Shown here one piece after another: positions 1-64,000 of a stretch of DNA of 64,000 nucleotides. How positions within the stretch are numbered: position 1 is the first letter of the stretch; every line of letters begins with the position of its first letter. The stretch is from Escherichia phage HP3, in sequence record NC_041919.1; one strand, 5' to 3'. A program made the position numbers and the translations under genes. The notes beneath the pieces are model-generated. The model did not search any database, was not told the DNA's origin, and saw nothing but the letters and a program-made list of their open reading frames with translations.

Positions 1-54
1 ATTTTTAAAAGCTCGTAAAGCTAAAGTATGTCCTGTTATTGAATATAAGGCTGA

Positions 55-1068
55 ATGATGAAAACAGTAATGAAAAGCTATTTTGGTAGTCATCTTTATG
101 GAACTTCTACCCCAGAATCTGATGTAGATTTTAAAGAAATCTTTGTTCCTCCTGCTCGTGATATTCTTATCGGAAATGTTAAAGAGCACATGAGTAAAAA
201 CACTAACAACACATCATCTAAAAACACTAAAGATGATATTGACCATGAACTATACAGTCTTAAATATTTCTTTAAATTAGCAGCAGATGGTGAAACTGTA
301 GCGTTAGATATGCTTCACACTCCACCTGAACTAGTGGTTAAATCTGATTTGCCTGATGTGTGGAAGTTTATTCAAGACAACCGTTCTCGTTTTTATACGA
401 CTAACATGAAATCCTATTTAGGATATGTCCGTAAGCAAGCTTCTAAATACGGCGTTAAGGGTTCTCGTTTGGCTGCATTACGTGATGTATTGAAAGTAGT
501 TAATCAAATCCCTGAGCAATGGGTTGATTACCAAGAAGATGGTTCTATTAAGCAGCGTCGTACTAAAGTTGAAGATATTAAGCATCGTCTTCCAGAAAAC
601 GAATTCTGTGAATGGGTGTTCCATAATCATGAGAAAACAGGCCCACAGACGTTCTACACAGTGTTGGGTCGTAAATATCAGACAACGCTTTCTCTTATTG
701 AGCTTAAGCAGTCACTGAACAAATTAGATGCTGAATACGGTGAACGTGCTCGTAAGGCCGAAGCCAATGAAGGTATTGACTGGAAAGCTATGAGTCATGC
801 TTGCCGTGGTGGACTCCAACTATTGGAAATTTACAAAACTGGTGACTTGGTTTATCCACTCCAAGATGCTCCATTTATTCTCGACGTGAAGTTGGGTAAA
901 CATCCATTTAAAACGGTTCAAGAGTTTTTGGAAGATGTGGTCGATCAAGTAGAAGCAGCATCTACTGAAGCTTCTAAGAACGGTATGCAGCAAAAAGTAG
1001 ACATGGGTTTTTGGGATGACTTCCTTGAGAGGGTTTATCTTGAAAACCACCGAAGTTATTATAAATGA
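55..1068 (+). CDS. hypothetical protein, nucleotidyltransferase-fold candidate
   Basis: 337-aa ORF; N-terminal GSHLYGTSTPESDVD resembles the G[SG]..D.D minimal nucleotidyltransferase motif; AAGG RBS 6-9 nt upstream; hairpin terminator after stop. Confidence 0.6.
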   Translation: MMKTVMKSYFGSHLYGTSTPESDVDFKEIFVPPARDILIGNVKEHMSKNTNNTSSKNTKDDIDHELYSLKYFFKLAADGETVALDMLHTPPELVVKSDLPDVWKFIQDNRSRFYTTNMKSYLGYVRKQASKYGVKGSRLAALRDVLKVVNQIPEQWVDYQEDGSIKQRRTKVEDIKHRLPENEFCEWVFHNHEKTGPQTFYTVLGRKYQTTLSLIELKQSLNKLDAEYGERARKAEANEGIDWKAMSHACRGGLQLLEIYKTGDLVYPLQDAPFILDVKLGKHPFKTVQEFLEDVVDQVEAASTEASKNGMQQKVDMGFWDDFLERVYLENHRSYYK

Positions 1069-1070
1069 TA

Positions 1071-1098
1071 GGGAGCCTTCGGGCTCCCTTTTTTTATT
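1071..1098 (+). terminator. rho-independent terminator (GGGAGCC-TTCG-GGCTCCC + T8)
   Basis: 7-bp GC stem with UUCG tetraloop followed by T-run, directly after stop at 1068. Confidence 0.75.
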
Positions 1099-1119
1099 TC
1101 AAAAATTTTTCACAAAATT

Positions 1120-1149
1120 GTTTACAAGCATAAAGCTTTATGGTACTAT
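1120..1149 (+). promoter_or_regulatory. T4-type early (sigma70) promoter
   Basis: GTTTAC -35 at 1120-1125, 18-nt spacer, TGGTACTAT -10 at 1144-1149, A/T-rich upstream tract. Confidence 0.7.
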
Positions 1150-1186
1150 ACAACTATCAACTGATACGGATTTGGAGAATAAAATG
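1142..1186 (+). repeat. 45-nt conserved leader cassette (copy 1 of 3)
   Basis: GGTACTATACAACTATCAACTGATACGGATTTGGAGAATAAAATG; near-identical at 28211-28258 and 56072-56116. Confidence 0.85.
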
Positions 1187-2152
1187 AAAACTGTAACTAT
1201 CAATAAGGGTATCTACTTCGGTAAAGAAATCTCTGGAACTTTTGAGCTCTTAGGTGAATGGTTCCCAGATAATGCTCCGGTAGATGCACAAGGAGATGGT
1301 AAAGTTTTTGTTGAAATTGACGGTAAGCGTCGCGGTGTTTGGGTTTACAAATCAGACATTTCATATGATGGTGTAAAAGTTGAAGAAGTTAAAGAATCGT
1401 ATGAAGATATGAAAACCCGCATTAATAAAAGATTTAATGTTATGGGAATGATGACGAATGGTATTATTAACGGAAACATTCGTTCATTAATTATCTCTGG
1501 TGCGGCGGGTATTGGTAAAACGTATTCTTTAGATAAAGCTTTAAATAAAGCAAATGATATTGGATACATTGAATATAAAAGCATTAATGGTAAAATCTCT
1601 GGTATTGGTCTTTATGAGCAGCTTTGGAATAATCGTGAAGAGAATTCTGTACTTTTGATTGATGATGTGGATGTTTTCTCTGATATGGACATTCTTAATC
1701 TTCTGAAAGCTGCTCTGGACACCGGAGAGACCCGCAAAGTCTGCTGGAGCACTGCATCTTCTTACTTAGAAGAAAAAGGCATTGAGCGTGAGTTTGAATT
1801 TAAAGGAACGATTGTTTTTATCACAAACGTTGACATTGACCGCGAATTAGACCGTGGTACTAAACTTGCTCCACATTTACAAGCATTAGTTTCCCGCTCG
1901 GTTTATTTAGATTTGGGTGTTCACACTAATGAAGAAATTATGGTCAGGGTTGAAGATGTTATTCTTTCAACTGACATGATGCAAAAACGCGGTCTTTCTG
2001 ATGAAGAAACTTATAAAGCATTATCATGGATGAAAGTCAATGTTAATCGTTTACGCAATGTTTCACTGCGTACTGCACTTTATCTTGCTGACTTTATTAT
2101 GACCGACAAAAACGGTTGGGAAGAAATCGCTGAGGTTACTCTTCTGAAATAA
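1184..2152 (+). CDS. P-loop NTPase (AAA-like), hypothetical
   Basis: ATG at 1184 with GGAG RBS (track ORF 1016 is an upstream extension through the promoter); Walker A GAAGIGKT and Walker B LLIDDVD. Confidence 0.7.
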   Translation: MKTVTINKGIYFGKEISGTFELLGEWFPDNAPVDAQGDGKVFVEIDGKRRGVWVYKSDISYDGVKVEEVKESYEDMKTRINKRFNVMGMMTNGIINGNIRSLIISGAAGIGKTYSLDKALNKANDIGYIEYKSINGKISGIGLYEQLWNNREENSVLLIDDVDVFSDMDILNLLKAALDTGETRKVCWSTASSYLEEKGIEREFEFKGTIVFITNVDIDRELDRGTKLAPHLQALVSRSVYLDLGVHTNEEIMVRVEDVILSTDMMQKRGLSDEETYKALSWMKVNVNRLRNVSLRTALYLADFIMTDKNGWEEIAEVTLLK

Positions 2153-2253
2153 TTCATAAGAGGCCTTCTATGACAAAAAGGCAGTTCAGAAATAGATTAT
2201 ATGGACTGCCATCAAAAAGATGATTAGAATTAAACTGGTAAATGGAGGTAGTG

Positions 2254-2556
2254 ATGTTATACTCAAAGGCTCGTGAAATTTACGAAACTAAAATTAAAGA
2301 CGCGGTTCATCAGTTCGCAACGACAATGCGTTGGACAAATGACTGGGAATACTCCAAGAATCATAAGAAGCCCTTGGTGACAAGAAAGGCTCATATGTTA
2401 GTGTTAATAGACCGTGAGCAGATTAAAGCCCGAGAAGCCCTCCAGAATCATAAAAAGGCTGCCTTTGAATGGTTTATGGATAACACTGCTCCTGAGACTA
2501 AGAAAGCGGTAAGCGCATGGTTCAGTGGAAAAAATTGTGAAAGAAGTTTCTTTTAG
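2254..2556 (+). CDS. hypothetical protein (100 aa)
   Basis: second ATG of track ORF 2242, preceded by GGAGGT RBS. Confidence 0.5.
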   Translation: MLYSKAREIYETKIKDAVHQFATTMRWTNDWEYSKNHKKPLVTRKAHMLVLIDREQIKAREALQNHKKAAFEWFMDNTAPETKKAVSAWFSGKNCERSFF

Positions 2557-2558
2557 TG

Positions 2559-2588
2559 GTTTACAAGACTGTTCCTCTGTGGTACTAT
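2559..2588 (+). promoter_or_regulatory. T4-type early promoter within stem-loop cassette
   Basis: GTTTAC 2559-2564, TACTAT 2583-2588; inverted repeat TGTTCCTC (2570-2577) / GAGGAACA (2605-2612) brackets the -10. Confidence 0.65.
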
Positions 2589-2616
2589 ACAACTATCAAC
2601 TACGGAGGAACACAAA

Positions 2617-3144
2617 ATGAACGCTAAAGATATTTTCAACCTGGTAAATTACAACGATGGTAAATTTAAATCTGAAGCACAAAGCAAGTTCTTTAATGAC
2701 ATCTCAATCGGAGGTGAAATCACGGTTGACGGAGGACAAATTTACAAATCTCGTTGGAATTGGATCGTTATTATCGATGAGATTGGTATTGTAGAAATTT
2801 ACAAGAATACGAATAAAAATCGTACATTACACTGGTCTCGTGATACTAACGAACAGTACAAAAAGGATAAAGCATCTAAATTATCTCGTGTAACTCAAGA
2901 AGATATTGAGTTCATCAAGAAAGATATTTTGATGTATGATAACTTAATTGCTGAAGAGCAAGCTGTTATTGATAAATTTGATGAGATTAAAGCTTCTCGT
3001 GAAATTCCTGATTTTATGAAAGAATCAGTAAATGAACGATACACTCTCATTTCAGAGCGTATTGAAACTTACAAAAAGCAAAGAGCTGAACGCCAAAATA
3101 CTCTTCGGAAGTTTGAAGAACGGTTAAAGACGGTACTCGCATAA
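2617..3144 (+). CDS. hypothetical protein (175 aa)
   Basis: ORF with GGAGGAAC RBS upstream. Confidence 0.6.
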   Translation: MNAKDIFNLVNYNDGKFKSEAQSKFFNDISIGGEITVDGGQIYKSRWNWIVIIDEIGIVEIYKNTNKNRTLHWSRDTNEQYKKDKASKLSRVTQEDIEFIKKDILMYDNLIAEEQAVIDKFDEIKASREIPDFMKESVNERYTLISERIETYKKQRAERQNTLRKFEERLKTVLA

Positions 3145-3199
3145 CCGCTTTATACCAAGGATGGTATAATGGTTCTAAGCCCTTTTAATTGAGATTATT

Positions 3200-3607
3200 A
3201 TGAAACAGTTGATAATTAAAAGATTGAATTTATTGATATGTTGTTTATGTGTAGTAGTTGCATATGGTTATTACGCAATTAATGATTATATGCATTATAA
3301 AGATTATGATGTTACTGTAGTTAATACCTTTACAGGAACTCAAGGAAAGGGGTCTAGTTTATCGTTTATTGCTGTATATGAACTCAAAGACGGTTATAGA
3401 TTTAGCGAATATATTTCACCAGAGATGTATTCATCAATAGAAAAAGGCGATAATATTACTGTAAGTTTACGTCCTTTCGACGTAAAACAGACATTGTTTG
3501 ATAATATTGTTTGGTTCTTTGGAATGGTATTAGTTCAATCTGTGTGTGGTGCTTATATAGTCTGTTCCATCTTATTCTGTATATTTAGTAAAATTGAAAT
3601 TGAGTGA
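3200..3607 (+). CDS. hypothetical membrane protein (135 aa)
   Basis: ORF with hydrophobic N- and C-terminal segments. Confidence 0.5.
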   Translation: MKQLIIKRLNLLICCLCVVVAYGYYAINDYMHYKDYDVTVVNTFTGTQGKGSSLSFIAVYELKDGYRFSEYISPEMYSSIEKGDNITVSLRPFDVKQTLFDNIVWFFGMVLVQSVCGAYIVCSILFCIFSKIEIE

Positions 3608-3614
3608 GGAAAAT

Positions 3615-4502
3615 ATGTCAGTAGTAATTAATAATGTCAATGCAGTAATTAAATCTTTAGTTAATAAAAAATTGAATGAATGGACTGTACTTCGTCGTGG
3701 AGAGCCAGATAAATTTTTTCATAGATTTAACCCAACTTTGGATTTGAATGTTATTGACAGAGATGTTCATGCTGAAATTTTAGATAAATTTAAAGTTGAT
3801 ATTGGGTTTGGATTAGATAAACATTTACAACGAACAAACGGGTCTGGAATGGGTTTATCTAATCGCATCATGAAAGCCCTTAATAAAATTGGAGCGTTGT
3901 CTCGTATTAATGCGAGTGAAATCCTTCGCAATTATAATAAAGGATATGACCTTTATGGTCGATTAATGCCGAAATTATCATTTGACCAAATGATCGCAGA
4001 TTTGTGGGAAAATCAACGACGATTATTAGCATTAGGCGCTCGATTAGCTAAAGGTCTAGATAAACAAATGATTTTTAAGACCAATAATACAGAAGACCTT
4101 AAATGCTTTAAATTTAGTATTCGTGGCGATGATTATTATATCAGAGCTCACTCTACAGATTATGTTAATATGGGGCATCATCTCTGTTTAGCTTTTGAAG
4201 TTTTAAAAGAAGCCGGAACATTAGAATATTCATCTGGTGCAAAATGCCCTATTGGTTCAAGTTGTATTTTAATTTATCGCCCGGATGAATCCAGTTCAAC
4301 TAAATTGCCTACAAAACCTGTACCAGTTCGTAGTAATGAAAAACATTCTGAGCAAATTGATTATTTTAATAAGCAAATTGAAGAGCTGAATATTTCTATT
4401 CAACAATATGATGATGAAATTTTCAGACTATCTGGACTGAGTAGTAAAGCTAAATCTGAGCGTGAAAAGTTAATTAAAATTATCGATTTACTTAAATCTT
4501 AA
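3615..4502 (+). CDS. hypothetical protein, coiled-coil C-terminus (paralog family member)
   Basis: ATG 3615 after GAGGAAAATATG; track ORF 3594 starts at an upstream TTG. Confidence 0.6.
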   Translation: MSVVINNVNAVIKSLVNKKLNEWTVLRRGEPDKFFHRFNPTLDLNVIDRDVHAEILDKFKVDIGFGLDKHLQRTNGSGMGLSNRIMKALNKIGALSRINASEILRNYNKGYDLYGRLMPKLSFDQMIADLWENQRRLLALGARLAKGLDKQMIFKTNNTEDLKCFKFSIRGDDYYIRAHSTDYVNMGHHLCLAFEVLKEAGTLEYSSGAKCPIGSSCILIYRPDESSSTKLPTKPVPVRSNEKHSEQIDYFNKQIEELNISIQQYDDEIFRLSGLSSKAKSEREKLIKIIDLLKS

Positions 4503-4510
4503 GGAACACC

Positions 4511-5533
4511 ATGAAAACTCGTTCTCAAATTGAAGATATGGTTCGTAATGCCAGCTATACTCGTGATGCTATGACATTTTTGTGCGAAAATAATTTAGAC
4601 CTTGGTAAAGTTAATTGTTCCATTCACGCCTTTAAACATCTGAACAGCAGTGAATGGGTGCGTAATTTTAATGAAGCTGGGTATATTACTCAAATGACTG
4701 CTCGTGAACAGCTCACCGATTTCTGTAAAACTATTGATTATAAAAATCCTCTATTTGTTCAAGGTGTTGGTCAGAGTAAGGTCGATTTATCATCTGGATT
4801 TTTCAATCCAAATCATTATCGTATTGAATGGAGATTTATTGCTCTATTCCGTAAACAATTAAAGCAAATTTTGTCTACTGCTAGTCGATTAAAAGGTTCT
4901 GATATTAACTTAAAGAATCTGAAATTTGATGGTTATACTCTTCAGATGGAAGTAAGACCATTAAAAGAAAATAACAGAACTGCACGAATTAGCTTTAAAC
5001 CTAATACAAAAAATTCTCTTTCAATTTGTGAATGCCTTAAATCACAGTTGACAGAAGCATTTAAGTATATGGATGTAGTTGCCGCGGTTCAGTCTAAGAT
5101 TTTACCTCATTTTGAGCGAAATTGGGAACATACAACAACGTATGAACTTGATATGATCGTTTCATTTAAATACGATTTTTTGAGAAAGGACGAAGTCCCG
5201 CAAGAGAAAAAGCAGGAAGTGCAAGATATCTTAAATTTATCCAATTACTCATCAAACGATCCTAAATTTTGGATGTATAGTTCAGGTAATAAAGATACAT
5301 GGAAATTCAATAAAGTGAATTTTCTTCCTGTTGAAAATCCGAGTCTTAAACCTGTTGAAAAATGGCACGCGGATGCGATTGAGAAGTCTATCAAGGCAGT
5401 AGATGATGAACTCGTTAAAGCAACTAATGAAGTGTTAGAAGCTGAAAAGATGCTAGAAAAAGCTCAAGAAAAAGTCAAAAATCTTACGAAGCAACGTTCT
5501 AAACTGAACAACGCACTAAATGCACTAAACTAG
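4511..5533 (+). CDS. hypothetical protein, paralog family (340 aa)
   Basis: shares WRFIALFRKQLKQILSTASRL-type motif with the next ORF; coiled-coil C-terminus. Confidence 0.6.
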   Translation: MKTRSQIEDMVRNASYTRDAMTFLCENNLDLGKVNCSIHAFKHLNSSEWVRNFNEAGYITQMTAREQLTDFCKTIDYKNPLFVQGVGQSKVDLSSGFFNPNHYRIEWRFIALFRKQLKQILSTASRLKGSDINLKNLKFDGYTLQMEVRPLKENNRTARISFKPNTKNSLSICECLKSQLTEAFKYMDVVAAVQSKILPHFERNWEHTTTYELDMIVSFKYDFLRKDEVPQEKKQEVQDILNLSNYSSNDPKFWMYSSGNKDTWKFNKVNFLPVENPSLKPVEKWHADAIEKSIKAVDDELVKATNEVLEAEKMLEKAQEKVKNLTKQRSKLNNALNALN

Positions 5534-5562
5534 TTTACTTTGCCACAAGGATGTGGTATAAT
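5533..5562 (+). promoter_or_regulatory. T4-type early promoter
   Basis: GTTTAC 5533-5538, TATAAT 5557-5562; CCACA..TGTGG inverted repeat in spacer; near-identical to promoter at 51770. Confidence 0.65.
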
Positions 5563-5590
5563 GTTCTTACTTTCTACTGAGGAGATTAAT

Positions 5591-6592
5591 ATGACTCGTA
5601 ACGAATATATCAAATCATTCAATAGCGTTATTGATGATAAAGTTAAACCTGTGTTTAGTCAGAATAGTGTTATTTCCATTATCAATCAATGGCTCAATAA
5701 TATTGATGCAAGTATTGTTTCTTCAAGCAAATTTATTCATGAAGTTCATAAAATTTCTAGTCGCGAATATAAAGATGATATTAAGGAAACTTTTAAAGGT
5801 TCTCGTCTTCTTTCATATTTAGTTAATCAAGATATTCTTGGTAAATTTGGGAAAGAAATTAAACGAACTAAAGATGTAGTAGGATACAGTTGGTTCGGTG
5901 ATGTTAATTCTTATCATCTTAATAATAAAGAAGACCCTGAGAATATTTTTACTCGTCGTTGGATTAGTAATTTTAGACTTTTCAAGAAGCAAATTCTAAA
6001 ATCAGCTTCTAAATTATGCTATGGTGATTATCGTCAAATCCATCCTTGGGCTTCTGATATGATTATCATAAAAGAATATGAGCTTGATAAAAATAAAGCA
6101 GCTATTTTTGTGAATTATGAATTTTTTACACCAGAAGCTAATCAAAAGAACATTAATAAATTTTTCTCAATTGCTAGCGATATAACTCGTCAGTTAGAGA
6201 CCGCATTACTTTGTATGGAAACAGTAGAAAATATTCATACTTATCCTTTTAAGAATATATGCGGTTGGGAAGGATATAAAATTGTAGTTAGTCTCCGTGA
6301 AGTAAAGTGTGCGTACTCACCGACTGATAAAGAAATTTACCAACAAAAATGTGATGAAATTGTGAATACTCCTAAAGAAGAAACTACCCTTGAGGAACTA
6401 ATGGAATGTCTTGACGATTCGCCTGAACCAGTAGAAATTCGTCCAGAAGTTATTGCACTAGAAAAAGCTTATAAAGAAGTTCTAGAAATTTCTAATAAAG
6501 CGCAGAAAGAATATGAGCAGGCTAAAAAGATTTGGGAAGAATCCGTTAATCGTCTTGATCGTCTTGAACAAGCTTTACAGTTAATTAAGTAA
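5591..6592 (+). CDS. hypothetical protein, paralog family (333 aa)
   Basis: ATG 5591 after GAGGAGATTAAT; track ORF 5540 start lies inside the promoter. Confidence 0.6.
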   Translation: MTRNEYIKSFNSVIDDKVKPVFSQNSVISIINQWLNNIDASIVSSSKFIHEVHKISSREYKDDIKETFKGSRLLSYLVNQDILGKFGKEIKRTKDVVGYSWFGDVNSYHLNNKEDPENIFTRRWISNFRLFKKQILKSASKLCYGDYRQIHPWASDMIIIKEYELDKNKAAIFVNYEFFTPEANQKNINKFFSIASDITRQLETALLCMETVENIHTYPFKNICGWEGYKIVVSLREVKCAYSPTDKEIYQQKCDEIVNTPKEETTLEELMECLDDSPEPVEIRPEVIALEKAYKEVLEISNKAQKEYEQAKKIWEESVNRLDRLEQALQLIK

Positions 6593-6644
6593 TTTAAAGC
6601 CAAGGATGGCTCGGAGTATAAACCATTAACCAAGTGAGAAGAAT

Positions 6645-7574
6645 ATGAAAACTCGTAAACATTATATTGATTATTTTGACAGTCTTATTACTAAACACCG
6701 TAATTATCAGATCGGGCACAGAGCAGTAATCAATAATATTCTTCGTGATTTCCTTCAATATGTTGGTCAGGAAAATCATATCTGTAAAGATACTCAAAAC
6801 GCTTATTCTCATTCGTTAGGCAATTTGCTTGAATGGTTTAAACGTTCTCGTATGTTATCTTCTACTGTAGCTCATGAGAACATTAAAAACTTTATGAAGC
6901 CGAGCTTCATTAAATCTGAGACATCTATAACCGATTTGGTTGAATTTACTATTGTTAATGATGTTAAAAAGACTCATTTGGCTGATTGGTTTTCTACCAT
7001 TCCTGAAACTAAATTTGCTGATAAATTTGCTTGTCAATTCAATGACCAAGTGAATATGCTTTTTAAGCATGCTCGCAAACTATTTACCGCGGGCGATGAC
7101 CGTACAAATACAGTTCATGTTAAGGACTGGGTTATTGCTGATGAAGTAACACACAAGCCAGGTGGTTCATCAGTATTAATTAATATCCAGGTTCCTTATT
7201 ATTACTCACGTAATCTTGGCACCATGACAGCTAAAGAAATTAATAAGCACAACAAAACTATTCGTTCGTTGTCTTATAAACTCCGCATGATGTTAAAAAT
7301 TATGGACGTAGTGGAAATGTATGACGAAACCGAAGATAATGGTTCAATGTTATACAGTTCACGCATTCTAATTAAACTGAAGAACCCTAATACATATAAG
7401 ACAGTTGTAAAAGAGCCTAAAGTAGAAAAGGTTGATAATCTGAGTGAAGAACGTGAATATCTCAATGCCCGTTTGATTGAAGTTGAAGCCCAAATTGCAG
7501 AACACACCAAATTGTTAAAAGCTCTTAATGCAAAAGCAAATGGTTTACGTAATGCTATTGAGGTATTGAAATGA
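6645..7574 (+). CDS. hypothetical protein, coiled-coil C-terminus (309 aa)
   Basis: ORF, similar architecture to the three upstream ORFs. Confidence 0.6.
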   Translation: MKTRKHYIDYFDSLITKHRNYQIGHRAVINNILRDFLQYVGQENHICKDTQNAYSHSLGNLLEWFKRSRMLSSTVAHENIKNFMKPSFIKSETSITDLVEFTIVNDVKKTHLADWFSTIPETKFADKFACQFNDQVNMLFKHARKLFTAGDDRTNTVHVKDWVIADEVTHKPGGSSVLINIQVPYYYSRNLGTMTAKEINKHNKTIRSLSYKLRMMLKIMDVVEMYDETEDNGSMLYSSRILIKLKNPNTYKTVVKEPKVEKVDNLSEEREYLNARLIEVEAQIAEHTKLLKALNAKANGLRNAIEVLK

Positions 7575-7960
7575 AAAAGCGTTTATTAGAAGACATTGCA
7601 GCTTCAAGTAATTCCAGTTTAATTAAAATTATTATGGCTGGTGAGGAAGATGATATGGAAATGCGTGGAAAGATTCACGGCTGCGACGATTTAGATTTTA
7701 AACCTCCAGCATGGGATGCTATTATGGCTATGGTTGAACGACGTGAAAGAGCTTCTAAAAACGTTCCTAATTGCCCTGAATGCGGTACTGAACAAGTTCA
7801 GTTGATTAACTGGCGTAAACCAGAGCTTGAATATAAATGCCGTCAATGTAAACATAAATTCAGTAAGCATGCTCCGGAAATGGTTAAATTGCCTGACTCT
7901 ACTGAGTTCTTTAAAGAACTTGTGAGTGTTCAACCAATGCCTAATAATATTTTGGATTAA
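7571..7960 (+). CDS. hypothetical zinc-ribbon protein (129 aa)
   Basis: CPECG...CRQCKH Cys pairs; ATGA overlap with upstream stop. Confidence 0.55.
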
Positions 7961-7962
7961 AA

Positions 7963-8205
7963 ATGACCAAGCGTAAAGAATATATGGAGGCTGCTGAAAA
8001 GGCAGTCCGTGAATTAGCAATAGCTTATTATAATGAACACGGTAAATTTCCTGATAGATACAGCGTGCTTAAATCTGCTTTAACTCGTTCATATAAAAAT
8101 ATGCTATCAGAAGTAAGTGATATTATATACAAACATAAAGAACAAACGGGCCAAAGTCTTGATTACGACGAGACTTTTAAACAAGTACTAGGAATTAAGG
8201 AATAA
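7963..8205 (+). CDS. hypothetical protein (80 aa)
   Basis: ORF tightly packed between neighbours. Confidence 0.5.
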
Positions 8206-19617: not shown

Positions 19618-19877
19618 CTTTTGATGAATTTAAAAATGTTATGATGAGTCAGCATTTTGAATGCGAAGTAAAAGATGATATTGGGCATAAAGAAATTATT
19701 GAATATTGGTTTGAACCGTTAGAGGTTGAAGATAATTGTATTAAAAAGGTTACAGTCTGCACTGACTGGGCTGTATCTTTTAACTTCAACATTTTAGATA
19801 ATGACACACCTAAATCATTACGAGATATGGCCGTATCTTGTATTAAGGATGCATACTGTGAAGTTTTCGACATTTGA
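19614..19877 (+). CDS. hypothetical protein (87 aa)
   Basis: ORF with ATGA overlap with gene 47. Confidence 0.5.
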   Translation: MTFDEFKNVMMSQHFECEVKDDIGHKEIIEYWFEPLEVEDNCIKKVTVCTDWAVSFNFNILDNDTPKSLRDMAVSCIKDAYCEVFDI

Positions 19878-20064
19878 CATTAATGATGAATTCATAGCAA
19901 ACATTGATTATACCGAAGAAGATTCTAGATATGTTGGAATAATTTATATTACATCGAAAACAGCACAAGGCGTTGTTTGCATGGCTGAATTTGATGAATA
20001 CTTTTTAGATTATGATGATATGATAGAATGGTCTAAAAGATACATTAAAAGGAATCTTTTGTGA
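19849..20064 (+). CDS. hypothetical protein (about 71 aa), start uncertain
   Basis: in-frame ATG 19849 or GTG 19858 inside track ORF 19801; AAGGA RBS. Confidence 0.4.
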   Translation: MHTVKFSTFDINDEFIANIDYTEEDSRYVGIIYITSKTAQGVVCMAEFDEYFLDYDDMIEWSKRYIKRNLL

Positions 20065-21743
20065 AGAATTTTAAACTAAACCGAGTTAGGTATCAAAATA
20101 TAATGTCAGTAGGTGGAAATCCTATTGACATTCAACTAGATAAGGTTCAAAAAACTCTTATTACTGGACGAAATGGCGGTGGTAAGTCTACTATGTTAGA
20201 AGCCATCACATTTGGGCTTTTTGGCAAGCCATTTCGTGATGTAAAGAAAGGTCAATTAATAAACAGCACAAATAAGAAAGAACTTTTAGTTGAACTGTGG
20301 ATGGAATATGATGAGAAAAAGTACTATATCAAAAGAGGACAAAAACCAAACGTTTTCGAAATCACCGTTAACGGTACACGTCTTAATGAATCTGCCAGCA
20401 GTAAAGATTTCCAAGCAGAATTTGAACAGCTTATCGGAATGTCATATGCCAGTTTCAAGCAGATTGTTGTCCTTGGTACAGCAGGGTATACCCCTTTCAT
20501 GGGTTTGTCGACCCCTGCGCGAAGAAAGCTTGTGGAAGACCTGCTTGAGGTAGGAACATTAGCTGAAATGGATAAGCTTAATAAAGCACTAATACGTGAA
20601 TTAAATTCACAAAACCAAGTGCTTGATGTTAAAAAAGATAGTATTATCCAACAAATTAAAATATATAATGATAACGTTGAACGCCAGAAAAAATTAACGG
20701 GTGACAACCTTACTCGTCTACAAAATATGTATGATGATTTGGCAAAAGAAGCTAGAACGCTAAAATCGGAAATAGAAGAAGCTAATGAAAGATTAGTTAA
20801 TATTGTTTTAGATGAAGACCCGACTGATGCATTTAATAAAATCGGTCAAGAAGCAGTTTTAATTAAATCAAAAATTGACTCGTATAATAAAGTCATTAAT
20901 ATGTATCACGAAGGTGGATTATGTCCAACCTGTTTGTCACAATTAAGTTCCGGTGATAAAGTTGTTTCTAAAATTAAAGATAAAGTTTCTGAATGTACGC
21001 ATTCGTTTGAACAGCTTTCAACGCACCGTGATAATTTAAAAGTTCTTGTTGATGAATACCGAGATAATATTAAAACCCAGCAGTCGTTGGCAAATGATAT
21101 TCGCAATAAAAAGCAATCTCTAATCACGACAGTAGATAAAGCTAAAAAAGTTAAAGCAGCTATAGAAAAAGCATCATCCGAGTTTATTGACCATGCTGAT
21201 GAAATAGCACTGCTTCAAGAAGAACTTGATAAAATTGTTAAGACAAAAACTAATTTAGTAATGGAAAAATACCACCGAGGAATTTTGACTGATATGCTCA
21301 AAGATTCTGGTATTAAAGGTGCTATTATTAAAAAGTACATTCCATTATTTAATAAGCAGATTAACCATTATCTTAAAATAATGGAAGCGGATTATGTGTT
21401 TACATTAGATGAAGAATTTAATGAGACAATTAAATCCCGTGGTCGTGAAGATTTTAGTTATGCTTCATTTAGTGAAGGTGAAAAGGCACGAATTGATATT
21501 GCTCTTTTATTTACTTGGCGTGATATTGCTTCTATCGTATCTGGTGTTAGTATTAGTACATTAATTCTTGATGAAGTGTTTGATGGGTCATTTGATGCCG
21601 AAGGTATTAAAGGTGTAGCTAATATTATAAATTCAATGAAAAACACTAATGTTTTTATAATTTCGCATAAAGACCATGACCCGCAAGAATATGGTCAGCA
21701 TCTTCAAATGAAGAAAGTTGGTCGATTTACTGTAATGGTTTAA
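20061..21743 (+). CDS. 46: recombination endonuclease subunit gp46 (Rad50-like ATPase)
   Basis: 560 aa; Walker A GRNGGGKST; coiled-coil middle with CPTC zinc hook; GTG start overlapping upstream stop. Confidence 0.9.
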   Translation: MKNFKLNRVRYQNIMSVGGNPIDIQLDKVQKTLITGRNGGGKSTMLEAITFGLFGKPFRDVKKGQLINSTNKKELLVELWMEYDEKKYYIKRGQKPNVFEITVNGTRLNESASSKDFQAEFEQLIGMSYASFKQIVVLGTAGYTPFMGLSTPARRKLVEDLLEVGTLAEMDKLNKALIRELNSQNQVLDVKKDSIIQQIKIYNDNVERQKKLTGDNLTRLQNMYDDLAKEARTLKSEIEEANERLVNIVLDEDPTDAFNKIGQEAVLIKSKIDSYNKVINMYHEGGLCPTCLSQLSSGDKVVSKIKDKVSECTHSFEQLSTHRDNLKVLVDEYRDNIKTQQSLANDIRNKKQSLITTVDKAKKVKAAIEKASSEFIDHADEIALLQEELDKIVKTKTNLVMEKYHRGILTDMLKDSGIKGAIIKKYIPLFNKQINHYLKIMEADYVFTLDEEFNETIKSRGREDFSYASFSEGEKARIDIALLFTWRDIASIVSGVSISTLILDEVFDGSFDAEGIKGVANIINSMKNTNVFIISHKDHDPQEYGQHLQMKKVGRFTVMV

Positions 21744-36881: not shown

Positions 36882-38221
<1,340 letters not shown>

Positions 38222-62726: not shown

Positions 62727-62999
62727 ATGAATAAAAACATTGATACAGTTCGTGAAATTATTACTGTTGCATCTATTTTGATTAAATTTTCCAGAGAAGA
62801 TATTGTTGAGAATCGTGCTAATTTTATTGCATTTCTTAATGAGATTGGAGTAACGCATGAAGGTAGAAAGTTAAATCAGAATTCATTTCGTAAAATTGTT
62901 TCTGAATTAACTCAAGAAGATAAGAAAACCCTCATCGATGAATTCAACGAGGGTTTTGAGGGTGTATATCGATATCTAGAAATGTATACGAACAAATAA
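62727..62999 (+). CDS. asiA: anti-sigma70 factor AsiA
   Basis: 90 aa; MNKNIDTVREIITVASILIKFSREDIVENRANFIAFLNEIG matches remembered T4 AsiA. Confidence 0.9.
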   Translation: MNKNIDTVREIITVASILIKFSREDIVENRANFIAFLNEIGVTHEGRKLNQNSFRKIVSELTQEDKKTLIDEFNEGFEGVYRYLEMYTNK

Positions 63000-63656
63000 T
63001 TATTTAGCCCTTCCTAATATTCTGGCCGCCTGAGCACATATTGATTCAAGGCGGTCATTACTTATATGATCATTTCTATACCAGTACATGGTTATCGTTC
63101 CAGCATAGATATTATCCAAATTAAAATATGGACAACTGTACATGTAGTTTATTTCGGGAGTAGGCTTTTTAGTTGGTAAAAAAGCAAATTTTGAGTCGGA
63201 ATAATAATGACGTCCATTTAAATGAACTGCATATTCATCCATAGTTTTATCAACAGGATATCCTCCAAGTGATTTTTCGCTTATTGTTGAAGGTAATTTT
63301 CCTTCGTATGCTATAATATCAACAAAATAGTTTAAGTTTTTAGGGCGGAAAGAATATACCGCACTAAAGTCTGCCTCAGATGATATATGAACTATCTGGA
63401 GTTGTTCCAGGGCGACAGATTCAAAGCGTGCATTTCTTTCCTTTTCAATAATTTCGCTGTATGTTTCATACTTTGATTGCTTATAGTACTCAAAGAAACT
63501 ATCTCCCCTATACCAAACAATCGCCATCATAAATAAAAGAATTACGACAGCTACCCGGGAAGCAAGAACATTCCCGGTAGCGTTATCTTTGAACAAGCGA
63601 TCTAGAACACCCAACAGAATATCAGAGGGCGAAAATGATATTCTAGGTGCTGCCAT
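63000..63656 (-). CDS. t: holin T
   Basis: 218 aa on - strand, single N-terminal transmembrane segment; size and sequence fit T4 holin; AAGGAGG RBS. Confidence 0.9.
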   Translation of the reverse strand: MAAPRISFSPSDILLGVLDRLFKDNATGNVLASRVAVVILLFMMAIVWYRGDSFFEYYKQSKYETYSEIIEKERNARFESVALEQLQIVHISSEADFSAVYSFRPKNLNYFVDIIAYEGKLPSTISEKSLGGYPVDKTMDEYAVHLNGRHYYSDSKFAFLPTKKPTPEINYMYSCPYFNLDNIYAGTITMYWYRNDHISNDRLESICAQAARILGRAK

Positions 63657-63686
63657 AGACCCTCCTTTTAAGGATATTTATTCAAA

Positions 63687-64000
63687 TTATACTCTTGGAC
63701 CATATATTGCTCCAACGTTTTGCCATGTCGGCGTAGACCCTATGACGGCATAACCGGCAGCTCCGCCATCGTATTCATATCCTTGACCACGAATATTACA
63801 TCTACCTCCCGCTGAACCTACTTCACCGCCGTTTCCACCATTATATATACCATTCACGGATCCTGAGCCAGGTGCAGAAATAGTACCGCCAGTCGCGCCT
63901 GATTGCATATCAATAGATCCGCCTGGCGCACCAAAAGGACGACCGCCACCGCCGCCAAAGGTCAATCTCATTTGTGAAAAAGGAGAATAATATCCGCCGC
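63687..64000 (-). CDS. 38: gene 38 product, 3' portion (adhesin-type, glycine-rich); truncated by window end
   Basis: - strand frame with poly-Gly tracts (GGGGGRPFGAPGG, GGNGGEVGSAGG) upstream of holin t; N-terminus lies beyond 64000. Confidence 0.65.
   Translation of the reverse strand, partial: GGYYSPFSQMRLTFGGGGGRPFGAPGGSIDMQSGATGGTISAPGSGSVNGIYNGGNGGEVGSAGGRCNIRGQGYEYDGGAAGYAVIGSTPTWQNVGAIYGPRV

Follow-up and report, generated by a model that had tools for sequence, protein, structure and literature searches.

The product of gene 38 can be either a receptor-recognising adhesin, as in phages T2 and T6, or a tail-fibre assembly chaperone, as in phage T4. The 3′ part of such a gene is located at the very end of the 64,000-nt stretch of Escherichia phage HP3 DNA analysed here (NC_041919.1; hereafter, the window), which raises the question of which of the two proteins is encoded there and, in the case of an adhesin, which host receptor it recognises. 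On the minus strand, positions 63687–64000 almost certainly cover the last 40% (3′ part) of gene 38 in a Tequatrovirus of the HP3 lineage, encoding an adhesin of the T2/T6-type gp38.

Gene 38 reading frame and family assignment

The minus-strand frame 63998–63690 is open, translates to GGYYSPFSQMRLTFGGGGGRPFGAPGGSIDMQSGATGGTISAPGSGSVNGIYNGGNGGEVGSAGGRCNIRGQGYEYDGGAAGYAVIGSTPTWQNVGAIYGPRV and runs past the window edge at 64000. Together with the stop codon (63687–63998), it comprises the final 103 residues of gp38. A glycine-rich minus-strand frame upstream of holin gene t had been proposed in the original prediction and is indeed present: Gly accounts for 31 of the 103 residues (30%), whereas it makes up 11% of the first 114 residues in a full-length relative, and t is located 30 nt downstream. 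The coordinate from which the feature had been drawn, 63687, is exactly the final base of the stop codon. The poly-Gly segments proposed for this frame are found in part; a G5 run (residues 172–176) is present as a whole and a G9 run with its final two codons, but the other motifs consist of GG or GxGG pairs (GGNGGEVG, GGAAG). Gene asiA is convergent with t and completes the canonical 38–t–asiA order. Two plus-strand ORFs, 63589–63753 and 63720–63815, were rejected, being short and antisense to the conserved coding frame. A 14-bp terminator-like hairpin with a T-rich tail is located at 62925–62957 (minus strand), about 45 nt 3′ of the t stop codon and within the 3′ end of asiA; a promoter and terminator scan of 62900–64000 gave counts equal or close to shuffle expectation.

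The 103-aa fragment alone matches the Pfam family PF05268, ‘Phage tail fibre adhesin Gp38’ (E = 1.2e-19; 71.5 bits, with a cut-off of 25 bits; profile positions 121–218 of 218), and phrog_2056, ‘tail fiber protein; host specificity’ (E = 1e-24); the glycine-rich frame is thus more than a chance occurrence. A chance low-complexity ORF is also ruled out by sequence matches in the PDB, namely the receptor-binding domain of PP01 gp38 (9V85, E = 2e-79) and S16 gp38 (6F45_D, E = 2e-49). A homologue search with the fragment yielded three matches only, the glycine-rich sequence sharing few index words, and a full-length relative was used as the query. This relative matches PF05268 with E = 4.7e-71 (239.5 bits). 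In tblastn searches against the phage collection, many alignments stop at residue ~142 owing to the low-complexity filter, and those identities were disregarded for the C-terminal domain. The N-terminal gp37-attachment domain Gp38_N (PF21721) is found in the full-length gene of Escherichia phage Pinarejo (E = 6e-20), in the part beyond the window, and also in an independent SRA assembly (L011). Directly upstream of gene 38, both Pinarejo and L011 encode a T2/S16-type gp37 that has PF13884, an intramolecular chaperone domain, at its C-terminus. The locus order is gene 37 (PF13884)–gene 38–holin t, with t seen in the window and gp37 in Pinarejo and L011.

A T4-type gp38, a chaperone for gp37 trimerisation that is absent from the virion, can be dismissed with near certainty. 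In T4, it is the gp37 tip that binds the receptor, and gp38 is not part of the virion. Such an assignment is favoured only by the name of the gene and by its location between gene 37 and t, upstream of the latter, which are the same in T4; the proteins themselves are unrelated. BLASTP comparison of T4 gp38 (NP_049864, 183 aa) with the full-length relative detected no similarity, the best alignment spanning 12 residues with E = 2.0, and T4 gp38 gave no hit to any Pfam family, PF05268 included. The gp37 of the relatives is also not of the T4 needle type: in T4, the gp37 tip has Collar and fibre-repeat domains, unlike gp37 of the window-identical relatives. The proposal of an adhesin-type gp38 is therefore upheld by the PF05268, PF21721, 9V85 and 6F45_D matches and the lack of any match to T4 gp38, and the full-length comparison suggested with it, carried out on genes identical over the window part, gave no alignment to T4-type gp38. 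Membership in the T2/T6/K3-type family can be narrowed to the T6 subgroup. The closest classical relative is the receptor-recognising, Tsx-specific T6 gp38, with 93% identity over 260 aa, compared with 81% for M1 gp38 and 52% for T2 gp38.

Two atypical database entries were encountered among the homologues. P0004, the representative of its cluster (98% identical), bears the NCBI label ‘Bacillus cereus’, seemingly through contamination or mislabelling. The 303-aa P0037 contains both PF13884 and Gp38 domains and is apparently a gp37 C-terminus/gp38 fusion or an ORF-calling artefact.

Modular architecture and predicted fold

Drexler, Tetart and Trojet (PMC3157838) described the modular design of gp38, in which glycine-rich motifs (GRMs) alternate with hypervariable segments (HVSs); the window reproduces this pattern. 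The layout comprises five GRMs and four HVSs; the region from the end of GRM2 to GRM5 is contained in the window, and for GRM1, HVS1 and the greater part of GRM2, window-identical relatives were used. The boundaries listed in Table 1 are approximate; we drew them ourselves on the basis of the Trojet scheme. Conservation was expressed as mean column entropy across 57 homologues.

Table 1. Features of the gene 38 locus and its neighbours. Entropy values are mean column entropies.
Feature	Position	Strand	Remarks
GRM2 end: last two complete Gly codons (G158–G159) of the (GGN)9 tract and a 2-nt partial codon	63993..64000	-	full-length relative reads ...AIAGGGGGGGGGYY...
HVS2, YYSPFSQMRLTF, residues 160–171	63957..63992	-	entropy 2.44 bits, most variable segment, 29% identity to reference
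Gln166 codon CAA, in HVS2	63972..63974	-	CGA (Arg) in HP3.1
GRM3, GGGGGRPFG, residues 172–180	63930..63956	-	entropy 0.07 bits, 99% identity, nearly invariant
HVS3, APGGSIDMQSGATGGTISAPGSGSVNGIYN, residues 181–210	63840..63929	-	entropy 1.67 bits, 7 inserted alignment columns
GRM4, GGNGGEVG, residues 211–218	63816..63839	-	entropy 0.96 bits; G212, G214, G215 and G218 (near-)invariant
HVS4, SAGGRCNIRGQGYEYD, residues 219–234	63768..63815	-	entropy 1.99 bits
GRM5, GGAAGYAV, residues 235–242	63744..63767	-	entropy 0.86 bits; G235/G236 and A238/G239 conserved
Conserved C-terminal segment IGSTPTWQNVGAIYGPRV, residues 243–260	63690..63743	-	predicted β-strands 242–244, 248–251 and 254–256
TAA stop codon of gene 38	63687..63689	-	read from sequence
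Spacer between gene 38 and t, 30 nt, with Shine–Dalgarno AAGGAGG for t	63657..63686	-	read from sequence
Holin gene t, 218 aa	63000..63656	-	PF11031, E = 2.9e-116; follows gene 38, as it does in T2, T6 and T4
asiA, anti-sigma factor	62727..62999	+	annotations of records identical over this stretch; PF09010 for the same gene in L011

The segments between the glycine tracts are variable, as had been predicted: the entropy of the GRMs is 0.07–0.96 bits (0.45 bits for GRM2) vs. 1.67–2.44 bits for HVS2–4, and indels are concentrated in the HVSs of the 57 homologues. The further claim that these segments determine host range agrees with published work (PMC3157838, PMC12032242, bioRxiv 10.64898/2026.04.02.716166). 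In an exchange of gp38 parts between CM8 and EV240, swapping only the half ‘from HVS2 onwards’ was enough for a switch from Tsx to OmpA (bioRxiv 10.64898/2026.04.02.716166), and the window holds HVS2, HVS3 and HVS4, precisely the part exchanged in that swap. The 14-nt direct repeat GGCGGCGGTGGCGG (63943–63956, in GRM3; repeat family D1) is found in GRM2 as well (L001:7095-7120) and is plausibly a substrate for slippage or recombination. The gp38 of Yersinia phage PYps47T (P0135, 278 aa) contains an 18-aa tandem duplication, GGYYSPFSQMRLTFGGGG, which corresponds to HVS2 and the flanking GRM.

The AlphaFold model of P0004, built on a 57-sequence alignment, has a mean pLDDT of 86.3, with values above 90 over most of residues 50–260. 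Residues ~173–229 are modelled with high confidence and assigned neither helix nor strand, as expected for polyglycine-II helices. A Foldseek search with this model retrieved the crystal structures 9V85_C (E = 6e-27, target-normalised TM-score 0.87, RMSD 2.4 Å) and 6F45_D (E = 2e-21); every match beyond these two had E > 3. The predicted fold, taken from the model and not from a solved structure, is a polyglycine-II sandwich combined with a β-helix. The gp38 proteins of Salmonella phage S16 (PDB 6F45, chain D) and the E. coli O157 phage PP01 (PDB 9V85) have the same fold, comprising an attachment domain, a β-helix and a polyglycine-II sandwich with protruding loops, but their HVS loops are unrelated in sequence to those of the window, and overall identity in the structural alignment is 44% and 67%, respectively. 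Both S16 and PP01 gp38 bind OmpC.

Polyglycine-II helices presenting variable loops are a structure-based picture of these adhesins (PMC12032242, PMC12892980), the β-helix domain being formed by the N- and C-terminus (PMC12032242). In the HP3-lineage protein, the N-terminal ~45 residues would attach gp38 to the tip of the gp37 trimer, and residues ~47–114, together with the C-terminal strands, would form a small β-helix. GRM1–5 would form polyglycine-II helices stacked in a flat sandwich, from which the HVS loops would project to contact extracellular loops of an outer-membrane β-barrel protein.

Full-length gene in the HP3 lineage

Over positions 62900–64000, the window shows no difference from Escherichia phages Pinarejo and HP3.2 (100% identity) and has 99.9% identity with HP3.1; the last 25 kb are 100% identical to HP3.2. 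A single mismatch with HP3.1 is found over positions 1–44656, whereas HP3.2 lacks positions 19639–20122 and has about 25 mismatches over the same region. These sequence comparisons assign the window to an HP3-lineage Tequatrovirus, which, given the mismatches with HP3.1 and the deletion and ~25 mismatches in HP3.2, is identical to neither of these deposited derivatives. No mention of HP3.2 was found in the literature.

The distant mismatch with HP3.1, at position 37159 (G vs. A), is located in the hypothetical protein gene HP31_0139 and is, besides the one in gene 38, the only window/HP3.1 mismatch in 64 kb. The 484-nt stretch 19639–20122, present in the window and HP3.1 and absent from HP3.2, lies between two ‘recombination-related endonuclease’ genes (gp46/gp47-like), and two small ORFs are annotated there in HP3.1. 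In the HP3.2 and HP3.1 records (L008 and L009, respectively; window ~1–8000), about 12 consecutive genes are annotated as ‘Thioredoxin, phage-associated’ and three as ‘molybdenum ABC transporter ModA’; both labels are evidently propagated mis-annotations.

Gene 38 has 783 nt (260 aa) in Pinarejo, HP3.1, C2-3 and the independent SRA assembly L011, which has an identical holin; an intact window gene would be expected to start with MAVVGVPGWIGSS. From the relatives identical over the window part, we infer that the full protein has 260 aa and that the N-terminal domain, GRM1, HVS1 and the intactness of the gene apply to the window as well. The HP3 RefSeq gp38, YP_010278715.1, has 187 aa and ends, after eight glycines, in the out-of-frame tail RRILFSFFTNEIDLWRRWRSSFWCARRIY. 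This tail is encoded by window positions 63999–63913 (minus strand) in another frame, with a stop codon at 63912–63910; therefore, the HP3 record has a frameshift in the (GGN)9 tract, directly past the window end. In HP3.2, which like HP3.1 was obtained by directed evolution (L002:7438-7600), an 11-nt deletion affects codons 51–54 of gene 38, between the attachment domain and the β-helix, and the annotated CDS starts at TTG; this may represent loss of function, re-initiation or an error.

With the window belonging to the HP3 lineage, the short RefSeq product and the HP3.2 deletion could both be taken to mean that gene 38 is a pseudogene or is disrupted here, by the (GGN)9 frameshift or by an upstream deletion, and that the window frame is not translated within a full adhesin. 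This is improbable. A sequencing or assembly error is the likelier cause of the frameshift in the HP3 record, because the gene is intact in HP3.1, Pinarejo, C2-3 and L011, and (GGC)n tracts are a typical site of indel errors in assemblies. The frame in the window itself is intact and 100% conserved. Amber mutants of T6 truncated at GRM3 or GRM5 produce particles that look normal but have lost adsorption (PMC3157838), yet HP3 is a viable therapeutic phage.

Receptor specificity and the Q166R substitution

The family, the fold, the GRM/HVS modules and the host-range role of this protein are all established, and an identical protein is already deposited; the locus is thus already known. The practical value of its analysis is annotational, consisting of the recognition of a T6-type member in the HP3 lineage and a receptor prediction (Tsx), and the residual interest lies in the discrepancy between Tsx and OmpA and in the parallel between Q166R and phage PST.

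Relatives of the T6 group (RB5, CM8, Bas35/WilhelmHis and FL23/FL44) have the GRM/HVS layout and the gene 37–38–t position in common with the window. The T6-type set of HVS alleles is present in the window gp38: it has the same HVS2 and HVS3 as the Tsx-dependent phages Bas35, FL23/44 and CM8, and HVS4 differs from that of CM8, Bas35 and FL23 by Y231S, as well as by D234N in Bas35 and FL23 (Table 2). Tyr231 is the only HVS residue unlike all the compared Tsx-verified relatives, being replaced by Ser in T6, RB5, CM8, Bas35/WilhelmHis, FL23/FL44 and PST. Other differences include S165, D187 and A199 in the window vs. Pro, Asn and Ser in T6, and T246 vs. Ala in most T6-group relatives. The gp38 proteins of T2 and M1 belong to the same family and share the GRMs and the N-terminal domain, but their HVS2–4 are other alleles. 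FadL and OmpF are the receptors of T2 gp38.

Table 2. Receptors of gp38-bearing phages and differences from the window gp38 fragment (103 aa).
Phage	Receptor	Differences in 103 aa
CM8	Tsx/HepI by RB-TnSeq (bioRxiv 10.64898/2026.04.02.716166)	2 (Y231S, T246A)
Bas35/WilhelmHis	tsx dependency complemented (PMC8594841)	3
FL23 (FL23/44)	Tsx (PMC12032242)	4
T6	Tsx	5
RB5	Tsx	5
PST	Tsx and OmpA	8
M1	OmpA	44

Given that HVS2 and HVS3 match the Tsx-verified set exactly, the nucleoside channel Tsx is predicted, with somewhat better than even confidence, to be the primary receptor on E. coli K-12. The host factors experimentally implicated for HP3, however, are LPS and OmpA, in contrast to Tsx for the T6 group. 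HP3-resistant isolates of ST131 ExPEC had LPS-core lesions in 19 of 21 cases and ompA lesions in 2 of 21, with no tsx mutation mentioned, and in the case of HP3.1, resistance came about through a truncated ompA (PMC8092219). These genetics conflict with the Tsx prediction but neither confirm nor exclude it; a 2025 paper on HP3 contains nothing on receptors. It is possible that OmpA is an additional or alternative receptor on ExPEC hosts.

Hence the protein could be a member of the same gp38 family whose working receptor is OmpA, alone or with Tsx and LPS, as in PST, although this is rather doubtful. The truncations found in HP3 and HP3.1 resisters point in this direction, as does Yersinia phage PST, which infects Y. 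pseudotuberculosis and whose gp38, only three residues away from that of T6, recognises Tsx, OmpA and LPS (PMC3157838). The PST protein has the T6-type loop set and the window residues Q166, M167 and G207 are replaced in it by R, I and I; a PST-like Q166R was acquired by HP3.1, and Tyr231 is absent from the compared Tsx-verified relatives. Single substitutions in an HVS can change the receptor, as exemplified by Q206L in RB68 (bioRxiv 10.64898/2026.04.02.716166). On the other hand, HVS2 and HVS3 match those of three adhesins with strict, complemented Tsx dependence (PMC8594841, PMC12032242), the OmpA adhesin of M1 is far removed in sequence, and position 166 of the window is Gln, not Arg. The lesions in the resisters could also act indirectly; according to the authors of that study, the loss of LPS or ompA genes may have its effect through a disturbed cell surface (PMC8092219). 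Tsx is thus retained as the predicted primary receptor.

The window includes the codon altered during laboratory evolution of the therapeutic phage HP3 to overcome resistance. Within the last 25 kb, the window and HP3.1 differ solely by T63973C (plus strand), which results in gp38 Q166R in HVS2; the source paper of HP3.1 does not mention gp38. The gp38 of PST was reported to differ from that of T6 by Q167R, M168I and G208I (PMC3157838), and these three substitutions were confirmed from the PST genome, position 167 of T6 corresponding to position 166 here. The agreement between HP3.1 Q166R and PST Q167R is suggestive of convergence, but is not proof of it. It can be conjectured, at a rather low probability, that a near-pure T6/Tsx loop set works via OmpA and LPS on pandemic ST131 ExPEC and that residues 166 (HVS2) and 231 (HVS4) switch between Tsx and OmpA. 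If true, Q166R in HP3.1 would independently repeat the natural T6-to-PST substitution Q167R, indicating that host-range expansion can follow a convergent, predictable route, and the locus offers a testable hypothesis of a single-residue receptor switch. A natural YYSPFPRMRLTF allele is also present (P0005).
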